Source: Shigella phage vB_SflS-ISF001. Taken from it: DNA of 50,552 nucleotides. A program made the position numbers and the translations under genes. A model generated the notes under the pieces. The model was not told where the DNA came from and ran no database searches. It worked only from the letters and a program-made list of their open reading frames with translations. Every line of letters begins with the position of its first letter. Within the stretch, counting starts at the first letter, position 1. Below, piece by piece: positions 4,496 to 49,114 of the stretch. The stretch lies in sequence record MG049919. One strand, given 5' to 3'.

Positions 4496-4734
4496 GTGAT
4501 TATCTCAGAAGAAAGTTCTTCTACGTCTTTTCGGATGATTAATCGCCAATTCTCAATGTATTCATTCCTTATCTCTTCGAAAGACATATCAAGAGAAGTA
4601 GTGAACTCCCACAGATCGCAACCAGTAACATCCTTAGTCAATCCATTTCGCACCTTAATCTCGCAGCACGTAGCTCGATAAAGTAGCCATAAACCTTGCT
4701 CAGTTAATATAACAGGAACCCTTTTTTCGCTCAT
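4486..4734 (-). CDS. hypothetical protein (82 aa)
   Basis: ORF track; ATG 7 nt after stop of methylase gene (operon coupling). Confidence 0.45.
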   Translation of the reverse strand: MSEKRVPVILTEQGLWLLYRATCCEIKVRNGLTKDVTGCDLWEFTTSLDMSFEEIRNEYIENWRLIIRKDVEELSSEIITQL

Positions 4735-4741
4735 AAATTTT

Positions 4742-12595: not shown

Positions 12596-13656
12596 TTGAT
12601 TTGATATCGTACCCATGACGGCGTTTCAAGTTCAATCTCGCTTGCATCGCCAGCGTATCCAGGCCAAACATCCATTTCAGAGCAAGCCTTGTAAGTGTGG
12701 ACTACGCTAATGTACTGGTTACGACCGATCCTGATTTGCTCCATAATCATACGGTAAGCTAGTGCGATATAAGGTTCTTTTTTCTCCTGCGCAAGCAATC
12801 TAACCACGTTCGGGATATCTTCCGGGAAGTTTCCTTCAAAAGCGCCAGCCTGGATTGCGCGTCGTTGCAGGTCATGCTGTAAGGCCATTTTCAGATAATA
12901 CGCGAGAGTGCATCCCGGTCGCGGGAACTCTAACGGGATGGCGCTCATCGTAGTTTTGAAGTCAGTAATAATCAGCGCTTCCGGGAAATTTACGTCTTCA
13001 TACACCGGATCGCCATTCTCATCATAACCAGTCAGGACACGACCTGGAACATTCTCCTTGTAATCAAGGTGGTCAAGTCGAACATTAACCTTGACGCCGG
13101 ATATCTCACCGAAGATTGAAATCAAACGCTGCGCCGTTTCGCTGTTGATACACGCTTCATGATCCGGATTTTGCTCAAGTATGGCTCTCATCTTCATGCA
13201 GGCGTCGTATTTATCAGCGTCAACGGGTTTCTTTCCTTCAGCGCGCGCCTCAGCTTCTGCGATCAGTTCAATCTGGTATTGAACGTTGAGTTCTTCACCG
13301 CAATCAACCATCATTTTGATGAGGTCAGGGTACTGCTTCCCGGATGTACCTTTCAGGCCAAATGATCTTAATTTTGCCGCTAGTGCAGCTTGCGAAGTAA
13401 TGAGATCTTTAAACTCTGCCGGAGCCGGGCAACGGGCATACGATGCAGTAAACAGATCTCGGTTCTCAAAGTTGGTGTGCGACTGAGTACCAAACTCCAG
13501 CGCTTTAGTCGTCTCGTTCTTCTTGAATGGCCAGTTAGCCGGGCAAGTCTGATAAATTTCTGCAAGGCTCGAACCGCTTTCATACTCTGCCGCCCAACCT
13601 TCGTTACTATGATACCCGACATTAGAAAGCTGAGTTGATGTGAATACTTGGAACAT
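12592..13656 (-). CDS. recombination exonuclease (lambda Exo/RecE-like, PD-(D/E)xK)
   Basis: IITDFKTT (D-x-K) core; first gene of leftward unit behind TTGACT-16-TATAAT promoter; AAGGAG RBS. Confidence 0.6.
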   Translation of the reverse strand: MFQVFTSTQLSNVGYHSNEGWAAEYESGSSLAEIYQTCPANWPFKKNETTKALEFGTQSHTNFENRDLFTASYARCPAPAEFKDLITSQAALAAKLRSFGLKGTSGKQYPDLIKMMVDCGEELNVQYQIELIAEAEARAEGKKPVDADKYDACMKMRAILEQNPDHEACINSETAQRLISIFGEISGVKVNVRLDHLDYKENVPGRVLTGYDENGDPVYEDVNFPEALIITDFKTTMSAIPLEFPRPGCTLAYYLKMALQHDLQRRAIQAGAFEGNFPEDIPNVVRLLAQEKKEPYIALAYRMIMEQIRIGRNQYISVVHTYKACSEMDVWPGYAGDASEIELETPSWVRYQIK

Positions 13657-13687
13657 TGCGTTTATCTCCTTCGTTTACGATGAATCC

Positions 13688-13715
13688 ATTATAGCCATTA
13701 ACGGCGTTTAGTCAA
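13688..13715 (-). promoter_or_regulatory. sigma70-type promoter for exonuclease-Erf-SSB unit
   Basis: Minus-strand TTGACT - 16 bp - TATAAT, about 30 nt upstream of exonuclease ATG. Confidence 0.6.
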
Positions 13716-14125
13716 TCGAATACATGTAATTGGTGTGTAATAGCGTGTCTATATCGCTCAAGTTACAACCAGCATTAACGGAATCAATTGCTTAAGTCTA
13801 TTTTTATGTGATGTCTACTGTGTAATACTTGTAACCGCTTTTTCTTAGAAATACAGAGATAGCTACAAGTAGAATCCATATTGATTAAATTTTGAACATA
13901 TATGATAGAAATTTGACGAATCAATCAAATCACCAGTTACACGATAGACAACTGTTACACAACAATAATTATATATATAAAGCTAAAATTAAATATTATC
14001 TATCTATATATATTATATAGAGTTTTTATCATATCCCTCTGCTGTCGGGTGGGGTGGATTTTGTAACACCCGCTCCGGTTACAAAAATAGACACCCGTTA
14101 CACGAAAAAAACTGTAATCGTGCTA

Positions 14126-14154
14126 TTGCAATAAAAGTAAATGCGACATACAAT
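14126..14154 (+). promoter_or_regulatory. sigma70-type promoter for 14184-15373 unit
   Basis: TTGCAA - 17 bp - TACAAT; partial 20-mer motif (CGTGCTATT) abuts the -35. Confidence 0.55.
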
Positions 14155-14183
14155 GCAATCACACTAACGACGAGGACATACAA

Positions 14184-14414
14184 ATGATAAAGTTAATCAC
14201 CATTATTGCTGCGGCATTCATCCTGACTGGTTTTGCTCAGAATCATAAAAATGGCGACTGCGTTACTTTCGCGTACGGCTCTTGCATGATGCGATTCGTT
14301 GATGGTAAAAGGGTTCCGGCTGGCGAAATTGGCACGCCATTCAAAGGTCTGTGGTCCGACGACGATCAGGGCAACTTTAGCGCCAAGGTAAGAATCATAA
14401 CTAAAGAGTGGTAA
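14184..14414 (+). CDS. small secreted protein (76 aa, signal peptide)
   Basis: N-terminal signal MIKLITIIAAAFILTGFA; 2 Cys in mature part; GAGGA RBS; sigma70 promoter TTGCAA-17-TACAAT upstream. Confidence 0.55.
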   Translation: MIKLITIIAAAFILTGFAQNHKNGDCVTFAYGSCMMRFVDGKRVPAGEIGTPFKGLWSDDDQGNFSAKVRIITKEW

Positions 14415-14416
14415 TT

Positions 14417-15373
14417 ATGGGGCAAGGAATATACATAAATCTAAATGACGGTCGCCCGGCAATGGAGATAATTTCAGGGCTTCGCGCCCCGTCATGGTGC
14501 GGACCTATACAGGCTGACGCGGTTGATTCATCTGGATCGGTTTTTGATTTTGGTTTGCAAATGAGTCGAGGGTCTACTGCTTTTTGCCTTCCATCTCAGG
14601 CTATCTACATAGACGTTAAGCATTACATCCCGGAGGTGTATTATTTGACCAGTTTTCAGAAGGTCAATGTTTCAACCGGACGAATAACGGTAGGTAATTT
14701 AAACGGGCATGGTGGAACGAGGATGAGATTTTATGGAAACTGCTACGAAATCCTCCCCGCTCAGGATGGAAATCAGGGGATACTTGTTAACGATTCAACG
14801 AACTTCGCAGCGATCCCTAATAACGCAAGATTGATGAGCGCAAAATTTGTTGGCGGGATTCAAGTTAACGGTCAGGCTCAGTTGCCAGTACAGGGCGTTC
14901 CTTTCGGTATCTGGGATAATCCAAACGTAACACTTGAATCTGACGGCAATACAATATCATGCAGGGATGCAAACTATAACGGGATTGATGACGTTGGCGC
15001 TAGCGTTTACGTGCAACTCGTAATATTTAATAATACTCCACCACCTCCTGGGCCTGGAATAACTATGAGTAACCCTGCTGGGCAGATCGTTTTCTCAAGC
15101 GTCAGACGCCCCTTCGTTCTTGGCGGGACGATGGCGATAAATGATGGTTGCCAGTGGTGCGGTGGATTTTTCCCAATCCTGAGAACAGGTACGATATGCA
15201 GAGTTACAGGTGGATATAATAACATTCGATACAAGGGCGTTTGCATCAGCGGCGGTAACGTGAGAAGCGCACCCGGAACAAGGGTAGGTAACTATTTTAC
15301 TCAGAGCGGCGCTCAATTTCCCTTCAATATAAACATTTCAATGCCTATTCCTTTCACTCCAAACATGTATTAA
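14417..15373 (+). CDS. hypothetical Pro/Cys-rich protein (318 aa), possible receptor-interaction or exclusion factor
   Basis: ATG overlapping upstream stop; PPPPPGPG linker; Cys-rich C-terminus; ends at bidirectional terminator shared with J. Confidence 0.5.
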   Translation: MGQGIYINLNDGRPAMEIISGLRAPSWCGPIQADAVDSSGSVFDFGLQMSRGSTAFCLPSQAIYIDVKHYIPEVYYLTSFQKVNVSTGRITVGNLNGHGGTRMRFYGNCYEILPAQDGNQGILVNDSTNFAAIPNNARLMSAKFVGGIQVNGQAQLPVQGVPFGIWDNPNVTLESDGNTISCRDANYNGIDDVGASVYVQLVIFNNTPPPPGPGITMSNPAGQIVFSSVRRPFVLGGTMAINDGCQWCGGFFPILRTGTICRVTGGYNNIRYKGVCISGGNVRSAPGTRVGNYFTQSGAQFPFNINISMPIPFTPNMY

Positions 15374-15400
15374 AAAAAAGGGGCCAATCAGCCCCTTTCT
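15371..15400. terminator. bidirectional terminator between 14417-15373 gene and J
   Basis: A8 - GGGGC CAATCA GCCCC - TTTCT. Confidence 0.6.
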
Positions 15401-15467
15401 GTTACCAGACATCTACATCCTCTGGGTCCCCGGTTGGTTGGATATCCGTGATTTCGTTATTGATTAT

Positions 15468-18400
15468 CTAAACCGAGTTAATAGTTCCGATAAATCCAAA
15501 CGATTCGTTATCCGCATACAGAGCACCCGTTACGGTAGCATTCATGAAGTACGCAGCACCATTCTTGTTAATATGCAACCCTTGATTTCCATCCCAATTG
15601 TTAGACTGAATACCGTTACCAATCTTTGCGTTAGTAATAAATCCATCCTTGATGATCGCGCTACTTAGAATAGCCTGACCATTCTCAACAACGAATGGAT
15701 ACTGAGTCTGACCGTTCATGGCTGTGATCATCGCAAATCGAGATGCCTCAAAAAGAATCTGAGCCTTAACACCCCCAGCTGAACCAATCAGAGACATAGC
15801 CATACCTGCGCTGTATTCCTGACCATTATACTTAAGGCCCAGCTTGACGCCGTACATTGCACCAGTCGAATCGGCGTTACTCCACGAGTCAAGTTTTTGA
15901 GAAAGTGCTGCCTCGTTATTCCCAAGTCGCGCGCTTAACGTTAAGTCAGCTTGCGTTCTCGCCACAGTCTCGTTCGCGATGGCTTCACGGATATCGGTCA
16001 AACTTGCCTGATTATCATCACCAATCTCTGCCTTGAGTTGGTCAATCTCACGAGATAGCTCCCCTGTCTCAGTTGCGATAACTTCACGCAATTCACTATT
16101 GCTTGCGTAAATCTGATCGCCAAAACTTGCTTTCAATTGCTCGATCGCCGTCACTCTTGCCTGCGTCTCATCAGCAATAAGTTTCAGTGATTTCGTGTAC
16201 TCAGGCTTTCGTTTTCCGTTCTCCTTCTTCATATAGATCGCGTCTTTGTCATGAGCTAACGCGTTCTCAATTGACGCTTCCGCGTTCGCTGCGTTCTGCG
16301 ACGCGTTGCCTGTTGCGTTATCAACAAGCCACTTGTAGCCAGGCGAGATTTCTATATCGACAGAAATCTCTCCGATGATATCGTCAACGTTTGTTAATGC
16401 CATACCTCTGACAAAATCAGTCCACTGAGACACATTACCGATCGTGTCAACCGTCCTTACCCGATACCACACAATATTCCCGCCCGGCATCTGTGAATGA
16501 TAATACTCATGCTGCGGATACGGGATCAGAGAGAGTAAACTCGCATTGTCAACCGTTCCATCCGGTGACTGTTGCAACTCTGTATAGGCCGTATCTCCAG
16601 AACCATCAGAGAACCCCCATTTTGTACGGATACCAAAAACAACATCATCAGTAGCCGTAAGGTTAATCGGTCTGCCCGGCTCACCTTGTTTGCCAGTCAG
16701 CGTCGCAGCTACGATATTTGACCATCCTGAAGTCGTACCGGAACCAGCTACGGAGCGAACGCGAACCTGATAGTTGCCAGCGTAAATACCCTCAACGTAA
16801 ACCTCTTTGTTTGCTGTCTGCGGAACGTTTTGCCAGTTGCCGTTATCCTTTCTCCACTGTACGTCATAGAAAACTGCGTACGGCACTTTATCCCAGCTAA
16901 CAATCATCGTTTCTACGCTCATCCCCTGGACGATTCTCGACTCTGAGGACACTTGCACGTTTTCCGGTCTAGGGATCTGATCTGGTTCAACGATGCTCGT
17001 CGGTCGGTCGTCGATGTTAACTCCGTAATCAATCTCGTCGTACTTGTTAGGATCGTACTCCACCGCCGTGATTTTGTAGGTAAATTCCTCGTCATCATCG
17101 CCCTTATCGATTTTTGTCACGACGTACTGTTGTAGCGCAATGTCGGTGCGGTCGATAGCGAATACCGTGTTAGGCTTCACAGGAAAGCCAAAGCCAATGT
17201 TAACCTCTATAGTCTTACCATCCGCACTAACACTTGAGATTGTGCGCTTCACGGGCTTGCCGTCGGGCTTATTTACGATAATAAAGTCACCTGCGCGCGC
17301 ATCCACACGGAACGGCAAGAAAATCTGGCTTCCAGACACTTCAAGCAAGCGCCCTGATAGGTTCATAGTCAAGTTGCTTGACCAGAAGTTGTCGGCTATT
17401 GCCACAACATCACCTATTGTCGGGATCATACCTTCAAGCCCGGTAGCGAAGTTTACCGTAGTGCTGCGGAGGTTAGTTTTCAGAATCCATCTCCCGCGTC
17501 GGTTTGCCTCACTTCGACGTGTGCAGCCGATCGCTGTAATGCTCGTTACGTTGTTCCCGAACCGTAGAGTAGCCTCACGATCGAATACTGGCTCAACGTC
17601 CTGCTGATACATGTTTTGCTCGTCATCAAACATCACATTACACGTCGTGTACATACTCTTTTCGCTTGCGAACGTGTAGGAGAAGTCACCATTAACAACG
17701 TTGTCGTTAGTGAAGATGTACGCAGGTTCACGCGGCCTGTCGATGATTACCGAAATGCTTTCGCCATTCCAAAAGCTCATACCTCGAAAGATTGAGCAAA
17801 TATCTCGAATAACCTTGTAAGCGTCAGTCTGAGACTGGATTATCACGTCGCAAAGGTATCGAGGCTCCGTCCCTCCCTTCCCATCAGGAACCATCTGATC
17901 GCAATATTGCGCGGCCTCGTAGAGCGCCCATTTATCGACGGAGATCCCAAGCTCCTTCTGATCCAGTCCGTAGCGCTGATTAATCATCAGGTCGTATAGA
18001 ACCCATGCCGGGTTGTTAGTCCAAGCCTTCTTGAAAGTCCCATCCCAATTTCCGTTGTAGGTTCGAGACTCAGGGTCGTAATTAGATGGAACGTTAATAA
18101 TCTTCCAGCGCTTACGAATTGAGATCGTAGGCAGCTGGTTTGGGAACATTTTCGAATCAAACTCGACAAAAAGAAGACCAGTCAGAGGATAACGGAATTT
18201 GGCATCAATCACCTCGGCATAGCTTTTCACCTGAATTGCATCAACGACATTCGAGTCACTTGAGTCAGGAGTCTTTCGAACAACTCTGAATATTACCTGG
18301 TTGTTGAAGTTCGGCAGGTTTACGCGACGGCTTCGATCATAACCCGACATTGTTTTGCCTTCGATTACATCAGTAAGAACAGTCTCAAACGAACCGCCAT

Positions 18401-18851
18401 CAACCGCTTGCTGCACCTCGTACTCAACGCGAACGCCGTTTTTATCGCCGTTACTTTCAATTCGTACGCCGCGAGGCATGAACATTTTGATACGGATTGC
18501 CGACAGCGTTTTGTTGGTTACTGAGATCGTGTATGGGTTATCGGTAGTAACCTCACGATTTACAGTTACCTCGCTGGAGCTATCTTCCATGCCCTTGATG
18601 TATTCCTGCGTCTGAGTTCCCGACCTGTACCCACCCCTTCCCTCGGCGAAGATGTACCATGCAACCTCGTTTTGCACCAAAACTGAGTTAAACATCAACT
18701 GCTTTAGGCTGAATGTTTCGTCAATTTCACCATCAGATACAGCTAACAGGTTTATGTTTATGATGTTTAAGTTATGTATCCCAACCATCTCAACTGGGTT
18801 ATGAGGCTTCTGTGACCCACCCTTAGATGAATTTATCACTTTTTGAATCAT
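15468..18851 (-). CDS. central tail fibre / host specificity protein (lambda J-like)
   Basis: 1127 aa, last gene of the M-L-K-I-J module; size and position as in lambda gpJ. Confidence 0.8.
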   Translation of the reverse strand: MIQKVINSSKGGSQKPHNPVEMVGIHNLNIININLLAVSDGEIDETFSLKQLMFNSVLVQNEVAWYIFAEGRGGYRSGTQTQEYIKGMEDSSSEVTVNREVTTDNPYTISVTNKTLSAIRIKMFMPRGVRIESNGDKNGVRVEYEVQQAVDGGSFETVLTDVIEGKTMSGYDRSRRVNLPNFNNQVIFRVVRKTPDSSDSNVVDAIQVKSYAEVIDAKFRYPLTGLLFVEFDSKMFPNQLPTISIRKRWKIINVPSNYDPESRTYNGNWDGTFKKAWTNNPAWVLYDLMINQRYGLDQKELGISVDKWALYEAAQYCDQMVPDGKGGTEPRYLCDVIIQSQTDAYKVIRDICSIFRGMSFWNGESISVIIDRPREPAYIFTNDNVVNGDFSYTFASEKSMYTTCNVMFDDEQNMYQQDVEPVFDREATLRFGNNVTSITAIGCTRRSEANRRGRWILKTNLRSTTVNFATGLEGMIPTIGDVVAIADNFWSSNLTMNLSGRLLEVSGSQIFLPFRVDARAGDFIIVNKPDGKPVKRTISSVSADGKTIEVNIGFGFPVKPNTVFAIDRTDIALQQYVVTKIDKGDDDEEFTYKITAVEYDPNKYDEIDYGVNIDDRPTSIVEPDQIPRPENVQVSSESRIVQGMSVETMIVSWDKVPYAVFYDVQWRKDNGNWQNVPQTANKEVYVEGIYAGNYQVRVRSVAGSGTTSGWSNIVAATLTGKQGEPGRPINLTATDDVVFGIRTKWGFSDGSGDTAYTELQQSPDGTVDNASLLSLIPYPQHEYYHSQMPGGNIVWYRVRTVDTIGNVSQWTDFVRGMALTNVDDIIGEISVDIEISPGYKWLVDNATGNASQNAANAEASIENALAHDKDAIYMKKENGKRKPEYTKSLKLIADETQARVTAIEQLKASFGDQIYASNSELREVIATETGELSREIDQLKAEIGDDNQASLTDIREAIANETVARTQADLTLSARLGNNEAALSQKLDSWSNADSTGAMYGVKLGLKYNGQEYSAGMAMSLIGSAGGVKAQILFEASRFAMITAMNGQTQYPFVVENGQAILSSAIIKDGFITNAKIGNGIQSNNWDGNQGLHINKNGAAYFMNATVTGALYADNESFGFIGTINSV

Positions 18852-39532: not shown

Positions 39533-40168
39533 CATGATGAACATCAGCGAAATCGAAGCGACCAGGAGAACAAGAGCGATAGCTAGGCCAGACAAGTCTG
39601 CTTTCTCTTCAAACTTCATTGCTGGCTTGCGGTCAACATTAATAGGCTTGACGTTGCTAATCTTGCTGGTGTTGATCTTGCCAATGACGCGGGAGGAGCG
39701 CTTGCGGTTCTTGCCGAACGTTGCGAACTTAGTGCCTGCACTGTTCCAACGAAGTCCTTCGCCATTATGCGTTACGGTACCGATGCGGTGACGGCCCGTG
39801 TCGTGAGTAAGCGCTACAGTGTGCTTTGCCTGCTCAGTAGGAACGTCGTAGTTTTTTCCAACACTAAATATTTTGGTGATATCGCTGATACATTCAAATT
39901 TCAAAAATTTTACCTCTTTATTATGCAGTTGTTTGATTGCTTCCATTACGTCTCTAAATATAACACCATCCACGATTCGATGGAAGATATATTTTGAACT
40001 ACCGCAATACGGCTGGAAAATTTCCTGGTTCTCGTGAGGACGGATGATGTTAACGTTGCTACCGTGCTCATCCACGACAACGAAGCTCTCGTCATTGACG
40101 TGAGCGCCTTCGTAGATTTTTCCCCACTTATAGCCCGATCCGTTACTTGATACGCATTCAAATTTCAT
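39530..40168 (-). CDS. tail-anchored membrane protein (212 aa)
   Basis: C-terminal TM LSGLAIALVLLVASISLMFIM; internal KFEC repeat; terminator downstream. Confidence 0.45.
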   Translation of the reverse strand: MKFECVSSNGSGYKWGKIYEGAHVNDESFVVVDEHGSNVNIIRPHENQEIFQPYCGSSKYIFHRIVDGVIFRDVMEAIKQLHNKEVKFLKFECISDITKIFSVGKNYDVPTEQAKHTVALTHDTGRHRIGTVTHNGEGLRWNSAGTKFATFGKNRKRSSRVIGKINTSKISNVKPINVDRKPAMKFEEKADLSGLAIALVLLVASISLMFIM

Positions 40169-40172
40169 TTTT

Positions 40173-40460
40173 CTATGGTCTAACCTTCCTATAAGGCATG
40201 ATTGATAACATCACGAATTGCGTGAAGTCGCATTCCTGATCGTCATTCCCGCGATTGATGTATGGAGTCTCGTCTGTAACATCGCATACCCTGGCGTGAA
40301 CTTCCCACCCGCTAAACTCACCCCGATGGAACTCTCGTAGCTGCAAGATATCGCCAATGTGGAAGTTGCGGTCATTGTTGCGGAACTCTGCCGTTATGGT
40401 TCCCTTCTTTACTCCAATGAAAGGTACCGGGTTAATTTTTAACTTATGACTCTTGCTCAT
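40173..40460 (-). CDS. ASCH/PUA-like domain protein (95 aa)
   Basis: GVKKGTITAEFR...GDILQLRE resembles ASCH-type fold signature; promoter cassette upstream. Confidence 0.4.
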   Translation of the reverse strand: MSKSHKLKINPVPFIGVKKGTITAEFRNNDRNFHIGDILQLREFHRGEFSGWEVHARVCDVTDETPYINRGNDDQECDFTQFVMLSIMPYRKVRP

Positions 40461-48694: not shown

Positions 48695-49057
48695 ATGAAA
48701 TCCATCAAACTGAAATGCACTTACGCAAATAAAAACTTACCATTTGAAGTAAACAACCTATACAAGGGTCGTGAGCGCTATGATGGCACTCGCGAAGTAA
48801 AATTAAAATGCGGCAAGTATTTAAAACTTGAAAAGCATGATGTTTTACAGATTCACGGATCTGATGAAATCTTCTTCGCGAAGTTCTTTGAGTGGACACG
48901 GAAGACGCTCAAGTGTACCGGGCTTGACCATCGCAACCCAATGAAAAAATCATTCAAAGTTGGCAAGCGTTACCAGGTTGAAAGCGGTCGCGCTCTCGGT
49001 GGCGTAGCTGGTTACATCTTTGATGAAGATGGTTGTCGCTCGCCCCTATTTATCTAA
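48695..49057 (+). CDS. hypothetical protein (120 aa)
   Basis: ORF track; AACCAATCAGGAG leader; promoter cassette upstream. Confidence 0.5.
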   Translation: MKSIKLKCTYANKNLPFEVNNLYKGRERYDGTREVKLKCGKYLKLEKHDVLQIHGSDEIFFAKFFEWTRKTLKCTGLDHRNPMKKSFKVGKRYQVESGRALGGVAGYIFDEDGCRSPLFI

Positions 49058-49114
49058 GAGGTTGGTTTTAGTATCGGAGACGGCACAACCTTTGAGGCCA
49101 AATACTTATAACCA

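Follow-up and report, generated by a model that had tools for sequence, protein, structure and literature searches.

Cor, found in phages T1, phi80, N15 and HK022, is a small protein that serves exclusion by inactivating FhuA, the receptor of the phage itself, and its gene lies near those for the tail fibres. Phage T5 follows the same logic as the locus considered here, in that a receptor-binding protein (RBP) for an outer membrane protein, pb5, is accompanied by a small periplasmic lipoprotein, Llp, which deprives the receptor of its capacity for RBP binding; the T5 llp and pb5 genes are not known to form one operon. The T5 receptor is also FhuA, and there Llp blocks by allostery through the plug and not by the physical displacement of a loop (PMC12685063). 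A locus downstream of gpJ was first described as a "bona fide RBP locus" with cognate exclusion genes by Maffei et al., in the Drexlerviridae and related small siphoviruses (PMC8594841), and a 2026 preprint places four unrelated RBP families there, each mapped to one receptor. Two pairs are especially close to the present locus. In coliphage Rtp (Braunvirinae) the genes for a 76-aa lipoprotein, rtp45, and for a protein of about 311 aa, rtp44, converge on the J homologue rtp43, and Rtp45 is the exclusion protein that has been solved on LptDE. Cryo-EM located bound Rtp45 on the periplasmic side of LptD, flanked by LptE and LptM, with a hairpin that extends up the LptD lumen and shifts extracellular loop 4 by as much as 20 Å, and on this structure the authors argue that Rtp45 binding precludes RBP binding (PMC12685063). 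In Oekolampad, a Dhillonvirus, the pair is bas18_0026 with its RBP (PDB 9rpt, 9rpw and 9rqi) and the layout is the same, gp26 and gp25 converging on the J homologue gp24; Dunbar et al. showed the RBP bound to the outside of Shigella flexneri LptDE in an open state (PMC12685063).

The window analysed here, the 50,552 nt of record MG049919 (Shigella phage vB_SflS-ISF001), is a T1-like Tunavirus of the Drexlerviridae, and within the phage collection ISF002 stands nearest to it, at 96% identity over the locus. Its two-gene cassette is very probably the RBP locus of a T1-like siphophage, that is an RBP and a cognate exclusion lipoprotein at the 3' end of gpJ, and the grounds for this are homology, gene order and a terminator hairpin, with the binding mode and the exclusion mechanism taken from the literature on homologues. 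As such it is already known, a member of the structurally characterised kind represented by Rtp45/Rtp44 and the Oekolampad pair, and the gain in biology from a cassette of so ordinary and already-described a type is small. The features of the locus are as follows.

14088-14118, plus strand: promoter-like candidate TAGACA-N19-TGTAAT; its counterpart in phage SA32RD carries a promoter annotation
14126-14154, plus strand: promoter-like TTGCAA-17-TACAAT, of putative function; 9 of 12 consensus positions
14172-14176, plus strand: Shine-Dalgarno-like GAGGA, read from the sequence, 7 nt before the lipoprotein ATG
14184-14414, plus strand: 76-aa lipoprotein gene (ORF19 of the published ISF001 table)
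14417-15373, plus strand: putative 318-aa RBP gene, 957 bp from its ATG (ORF20 of the published table)
15377-15398, both strands: predicted bidirectional intrinsic terminator hairpin common to the cassette and J, from folding and the SA32RD annotation
15402-18851, minus strand: J-like central tail-fibre gene, from the ORF list and relatives

In the ORF list both cassette genes run rightward between recE/erf and J, which lie on the minus strand, and so converge on J. The published ISF001 table has the same two ORFs (ORF19, 14184-14414, 76 aa; ORF20, 14417-15373, 318 aa) and gives the neighbouring ORF21 as a tail fibre of 1,127 aa at 15468-18851 (PMC6667099); an upstream GTG taken as the start of the second ORF would extend it to 321 aa. 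The hairpin beyond the cassette is GC-rich, with a run of A on one flank and of T on the other, and folds on both strands, at −13 kcal/mol followed by UUUCUGUU on the plus strand and at −16.5 kcal/mol followed by U8 on the minus strand, with z about −3 for each. It was missed by a simple terminator scan and found by folding, and the homologous SA32RD hairpin is annotated as a terminator on both strands. The RBP ORF, which at 957 bp falls in the range of about 930-960 bp given for its family, ends 28 nt from the normal J stop, with this terminator between them. Thus the original prediction, which placed two rightward ORFs between the recombination genes and J and had them end at a terminator common to J, was correct as to the layout. 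An Rfam scan of 13500-15600 returned a single sub-threshold chance match, to sR35 (18.6 bits vs a gathering score of 60).

The same prediction had credited the cassette with a canonical sigma70 promoter, and its description as an autonomous early module rests on that promoter. The TTGCAA-17-TACAAT site agrees with the consensus at only 9 of 12 positions, and the 8 promoter-like sites of the region do not exceed the 5.9 ± 2.5 seen in shuffles, which leaves both the promoter claim and the early module without a footing above chance. The site is invariant across six Tunaviruses. The candidate further upstream, with a 19-nt spacer as read from the window sequence, is not among the sites listed by the promoter scan. 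The intergenic DNA ahead of the cassette, 527 nt long, agrees with that of ISF002 throughout (100% identity). The motif GTTACAC clusters in this intergenic region but shows no enrichment in the genome, with 5 copies vs 4.5 expected, and was not taken for an operator. The lipoprotein stop and the start of the RBP gene are 2 nt apart, and with this gap and the GAGGA upstream of the first gene it is probable that the two genes are co-transcribed and translationally coupled, transcription probably ending at the terminator common to J. The Rtp genes differ in overlapping by 1 nt, and across 17 related loci the Rtp45-family ORF is separated from the RBP start by 2 nt in 11 and overlaps it by 1 nt in 6.

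By sequence comparison the 76-aa protein is a member of the Rtp45 superinfection-exclusion family. It matches Pfam PF24052, "Phage lipoprotein family", with an E value of 3.1e-18 (65.9 bits vs a cut-off of 27), phrog_4281 with 9e-32, and PDB chain 9rps_D, "Phage lipoprotein", which is Rtp45, with 5.6e-6. Identity to Rtp45 is only 37% in the multiple alignment and 32% by BLASTP (E 2e-11), and reaches 53% in the multiple alignment with the exclusion protein of Oekolampad, a phage of a different group from Tunavirus; the orthologues at the same position in SH6 (where the pair is gp50/gp49), ISF002, pSf-2, Shfl1, DELF2 and Sfin-1 are at 80-84%. A Pfam scan at E up to 1 found no family besides PF24052, and NCBIfam and PADLOC scans of both cassette proteins had no matches. 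Because of its membership of the Rtp45 family the protein may be given an exclusion role like that of Cor or Llp, and so the Cor-like role that had been proposed for the module stands for its first gene, as a likeness in role, the Pfam, NCBIfam and PADLOC scans having given no family besides PF24052. Llp has no detectable sequence homology to the 76-aa protein, a PDB search at E up to 10 having returned no match to it although Llp chains are present in the PDB (PMC9586334).

The N-terminus of the 76-aa protein is hydrophobic (mean Kyte-Doolittle 2.6 over 13 residues) and the protein has two Cys residues, C26 and C34, in keeping with the signal peptide and the Cys pair that had been predicted. 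The C26 and C34 columns are invariant and align with the Rtp45 pair reported as a Cys30-Cys38 disulfide. Predicted too was that the protein has no lipobox, and this is true of MG049919, where the lipobox codon at 14232-14234 is TTT (Phe17) and the protein reads LTGF, but it is a change private to that record. The lipobox Cys is kept in all 18 distinct relatives examined, and is present in ISF002, SA32RD, SH6, Shfl1, Rtp45, the Oekolampad protein and 16 of 16 distinct IMG/VR homologues; C17, together with D50 and R52, is invariant in every other aligned family member. The orthologues of the SH6 group keep both an LTGC lipobox and a J of 1,149 aa, and MG049919 keeps neither. The missing Cys is most likely a trait of the deposited sequence and not of the phage, because it is a private change in a record with an unnatural pattern of substitution.

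The 318-aa protein is most likely a virion receptor-binding protein, a location suggested by homology and gene context. Its match to Pfam PF20051 (DUF6453) is full length (E 6.5e-118, 393.8 bits vs a cut-off of 25), and among PDB entries it finds its match in chain C of 9rpt, 9rpw and 9rqi, which goes by the name "Tail fiber protein", with residues 1-318 aligned on 1-321 of 9rpt_C at 41% identity (E 3.3e-64). The orthologues of SH6, pSf-2 and ISF002 are 94-95% identical, Rtp44 40%, and the Oekolampad (Bas18) RBP 41% at 100% coverage. RefSeq and PHROGs label the family "membrane protein" and "moron", and these labels are not supported, because the 318-aa protein has no hydrophobic segment: the maximum mean Kyte-Doolittle value is 0.92 over 19 residues, so that no transmembrane segment is evident, and there is no signal peptide. 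Correcting the two database labels is one use of the present assignment. The proline motif of the protein is PPPPGPG, with four Pro, and not the PPPPPGPG linker that had been described, and the Cys-rich C-terminus described with it is weak, as four of the 8 Cys lie in the last 75 residues and one, C245, is a Trp-to-Cys change private to the record. The Oekolampad RBP has no counterparts of Tunavirus Cys28, Cys109, Cys182, Cys248, Cys261 and Cys276. The fold expected of this RBP family is a pair of beta-sandwiches from which loops project; a single-sequence AlphaFold2 model of the protein was unusable for comparison with it (mean pLDDT 30.4).

Gene context was surveyed in 80 IMG/VR loci encoding a homologue of the 318-aa protein, in 79 of which a J-like gene abuts the RBP gene, at the J 3' end. 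The RBP gene directly follows J on the same strand in 61, and in the four same-strand loci inspected a tail-fibre-like gene comes next after it. Another 18 loci are convergent like the window, and 16 of these have an Rtp45-family ORF adjoining the start of the RBP gene; one further locus, truncated ahead of J, carries such an ORF as well.

From the work on homologues, for which LptDE binding, dependence of infection on LptD and presence in the virion are known, the following course of events may be proposed. The 318-aa RBP would sit at the tip of the tail, attached to the C-terminus of J, and by homology would bind LptDE, the LPS translocon, on its extracellular side, entering the lumen of the barrel and so committing the phage to infection. 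The 76-aa protein in its normal form would be exported and lipidated on the lipobox Cys, and the Ala at +2 suggests that it is then sorted to the outer membrane, on the inner leaflet. There the lipoprotein, a product of the infected cell, would bind the periplasmic side of LptD with its hairpin pushed up the lumen, and displacement of extracellular loop 4 would leave the RBP of an incoming or released phage unable to bind. Such a block of LptD would prevent superinfection and also the loss of progeny on debris. We infer the LptD specificity of the ISF001 allele, which rests on the 41% identity and a published prediction, as we do the docking on J, the promoter and co-transcription. If it holds, LptD, an essential protein, can be predicted as the terminal receptor for a Shigella phage that is a candidate for therapy, and this bears on how resistance arises.

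Whether the receptor is indeed LptD is where the best of the alternatives departs. The architecture and mechanism could be the same while the Tunavirus allele uses a receptor other than LptD, or uses LptD differently, and the lipoprotein blocks that receptor. The RBP shares only 40-41% identity with its experimentally studied counterparts, and the lipoprotein 37-53%, and a literature search found no direct receptor data for Tunavirus alleles. Conserved residues of the RBP family lie at the base of the protein and not in the receptor-contacting loops, which are reported as the less conserved part (PMC13035648), and because of this a change of receptor specificity within the family is possible. 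On the other side, the SH6 orthologue has already been given as a predicted LptD binder by Black et al., its model lying within 0.84 Å RMSD of the LptD-dependent OzMSK RBP (PMC13035648), and the LptDE of the solved complex comes from S. flexneri, the host of ISF001. A different receptor, or a different use of LptD, is thus judged unlikely, and binding of LptD in the manner of the homologues is preferred.

The only unexpected result concerns the state of the deposited record. In an alignment of 8.7 kb around the locus, made of the window and five relatives, codon position 2 takes nearly every substitution that the window alone has: 20 of 20 in erf, 22 of 24 in recE, 12 of 14 in the lipoprotein gene and 56 of 73 in J, with none in intergenic DNA. 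At the protein level the lipoprotein carries 12 such private changes and the RBP 16. The private substitutions of pSf-2, SH6, DELF2 and Shfl1 are mostly at codon position 3, as expected, and ISF002 has one in the whole region. Genome-wide, the window differs from ISF002 at 1,472 positions, of which 999 (68%) are at codon position 2, 250 at position 1 and 212 at position 3, and only 11 are intergenic, in about 6 kb of intergenic DNA; the changed codons are nonsynonymous in 1,102 cases and synonymous in 76. Pair distances of the differences peak at 48, 96, 144 and 192 nt, a 48-nt period exemplified in J by changes at codons 787, 803, 819, 835, 851, 867 and 883. Swaps of A with T or of G with C make up 58% of the changes relative to ISF002 genome-wide, and 66% in the 8.7-kb region vs 11-20% between other Tunaviruses, where transitions dominate. 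The changed sites have no sequence motif around them.

The deposited sequence looks corrupted, and its differences from ISF002 do not look natural. Sequencing error was considered as the cause and rejected, as the changes track codon position whichever strand a gene is on and keep out of the DNA between genes; systematic miscalls of the methylation type were rejected since the changed sites have no sequence context, and positive selection since it would have had to act across almost all genes and yet spare synonymous and intergenic sites. Among the changes private to the record are Cys17Phe in the lipoprotein, Trp245Cys in the RBP and Gln1128 to stop in J. The J ORF has 1,149 codons in relatives, being a 3,450-nt gene in all five, and in MG049919 it stops early, after 1,127 aa and so 22 residues short, at an in-frame TAG (15468-15470); 10 of the 21 J codons downstream of this TAG are changed as well.

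As deposited, with Phe17 and with J lacking its last 22 residues, the record would, if real, impair the proposed mechanism. Taking the private changes at face value, one would have a non-lipidated periplasmic exclusion protein, possibly processed by signal peptidase I between A and Q of G-F-A-Q, and a J 22 residues shorter, the cassette working differently or being partly defective. Both the deposited sequence and the published ORF table carry the changes, and the ISF001 paper gives an Illumina coverage above 1000x (PMC6667099). Against this stand the membership of these changes in the set of differences from ISF002, with its codon-position bias, excess of nonsynonymous codons, periodic spacing and swap bias, and the invariance of C17, D50 and R52 in every other aligned lipoprotein; since the substitutions follow the reading frames, neither evolution nor sequencing error, which do not act with regard to frame, will account for them. 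A biological origin of the changes is accordingly highly improbable, and it is harder still to credit that ISF001 is viable with an exclusion protein that has lost its lipid anchor (Cys17Phe) and a J without the 22 C-terminal residues that supposedly match the RBP; were it true, the cassette could function with the anchor and the J tip both dispensed with. Corruption of the record being preferred, residue-level oddities of MG049919 should not be read as biology without re-sequencing. The ISF001 entry is listed as a separate species, Tunavirus ISF001, and its proteins, wherever they serve taxonomy, training sets or the prediction of receptors, would bring along about 1,100 amino-acid changes, probably unreal, among them the loss of the lipobox and two premature stops.

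That both proteins form an exclusion or receptor-modifying module in the infected cell, the 318-aa protein being absent from the virion, is barely credible. In its favour, promoter-like sites and a terminator belong to the cassette itself, which faces the other way from the tail operon, its first gene truly belongs to an exclusion family, and the 318-aa family bears the database labels "membrane protein" and "moron". Against it, the 318-aa protein is homologous over its full length to a protein whose structure was solved on the receptor's exterior, it lacks a signal peptide and a transmembrane segment and thus any evident way of reaching the envelope from within the cell, and its gene comes directly after J on the same strand in most of the surveyed loci, with a tail-fibre-like gene next in those four inspected. 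The original prediction had read the cassette in just this way, and that reading survives for gene 1 (PF24052, 9rps_D) and fails for gene 2, an RBP homologue (9rpt_C). Since the prediction itself named a virion component as one of two findings that would refute it, the probable RBP identity counts against its reading of gene 2, and there is no support for casting the 318-aa protein as a partner that helps to exclude phages or to modify the receptor.

As to J, among the matches sampled and listed for its C-terminal 149 aa those that cover the whole stretch are from T1-like phages, several of which have a DUF6453 RBP, and most of the others stop 30-50 aa before the end. This pattern of coverage at the J tip fits the suggestion, made in the 2026 preprint, that the J tip matches the RBP.

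Across the whole window (1-50552) 1,472 substitutions separate this DNA from phage ISF002, a close Tunavirus relative, and the way in which they are distributed is, as judged from the sequences, unnatural. Codon position 2 takes 68% of them, and the codons that differ are nonsynonymous in 1,102 cases as against 76 synonymous. Only 11 of the substitutions are intergenic, swaps of A with T or of G with C make up 58%, and the spacing between substitutions peaks at 48, 96, 144 and 192 nt. ISF001 and ISF002 are listed as two separate species, and according to the table in the ISF001 paper (PMC6667099) it is the GenBank proteins of ISF002 that bear the 'ISF001_0xx' names.

Some of these changes lie at the 3' end of J, the central tail-fibre gene. 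The Gln1128 codon of the relatives is an in-frame TAG in the window (15468-15470, − strand), and J is consequently 1,127 aa long, as compared to 1,149 aa without this TAG. Beyond it 10 of the 21 codons are altered (15402-15470, − strand), which is accounted for by 14 substitutions private to this record between 15412 and 15463, 11 of them at codon position 2. A second premature stop and three length differences are set out below.

Length differences from ISF002 and the second premature stop
4734-4741, 8-nt insertion, at or near the overlap of two ISF002 genes
about 11337, 29-nt deletion, close to where the lateral tail-fibre gene ends
40167-40174, 8-nt insertion, at or near the overlap of two ISF002 genes
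about 49050-49060, second premature stop, ISF002 gp76 homologue, codon 121 of 138

Upstream of the cassette formed by the 76-aa and 318-aa genes lies one further feature.

13657-14183, 527 nt, intergenic DNA separating recE from the cassette

In a six-phage alignment this region averages 97% column identity and is better conserved than the genes on either side, and it holds several repeats with a GTTACA core in both orientations as well as AT-rich palindromes at about 13970-14012; genome-wide, no enrichment of GTTACAC was found. The region may have a regulatory function or act as an origin.

Among 80 related IMG/VR loci the DUF6453 gene, which encodes the 318-aa protein, lies immediately 3' of J and on the same strand in 61, and in none of these 61 is an Rtp45-family ORF found directly upstream of it. 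In the same-strand loci examined for the gene 3' of the DUF6453 gene (n=4) that gene is tail-fibre-like, and many of the same-strand contigs look like prophage-type sequences from bacterial genomes. For the family of the 14417-15373 (+ strand) product the RefSeq label is 'membrane protein' and the PHROGs category is 'moron, auxiliary metabolic gene and host takeover'; no hydrophobic segment was found in the product, which is homologous to a receptor-binding protein of solved structure.
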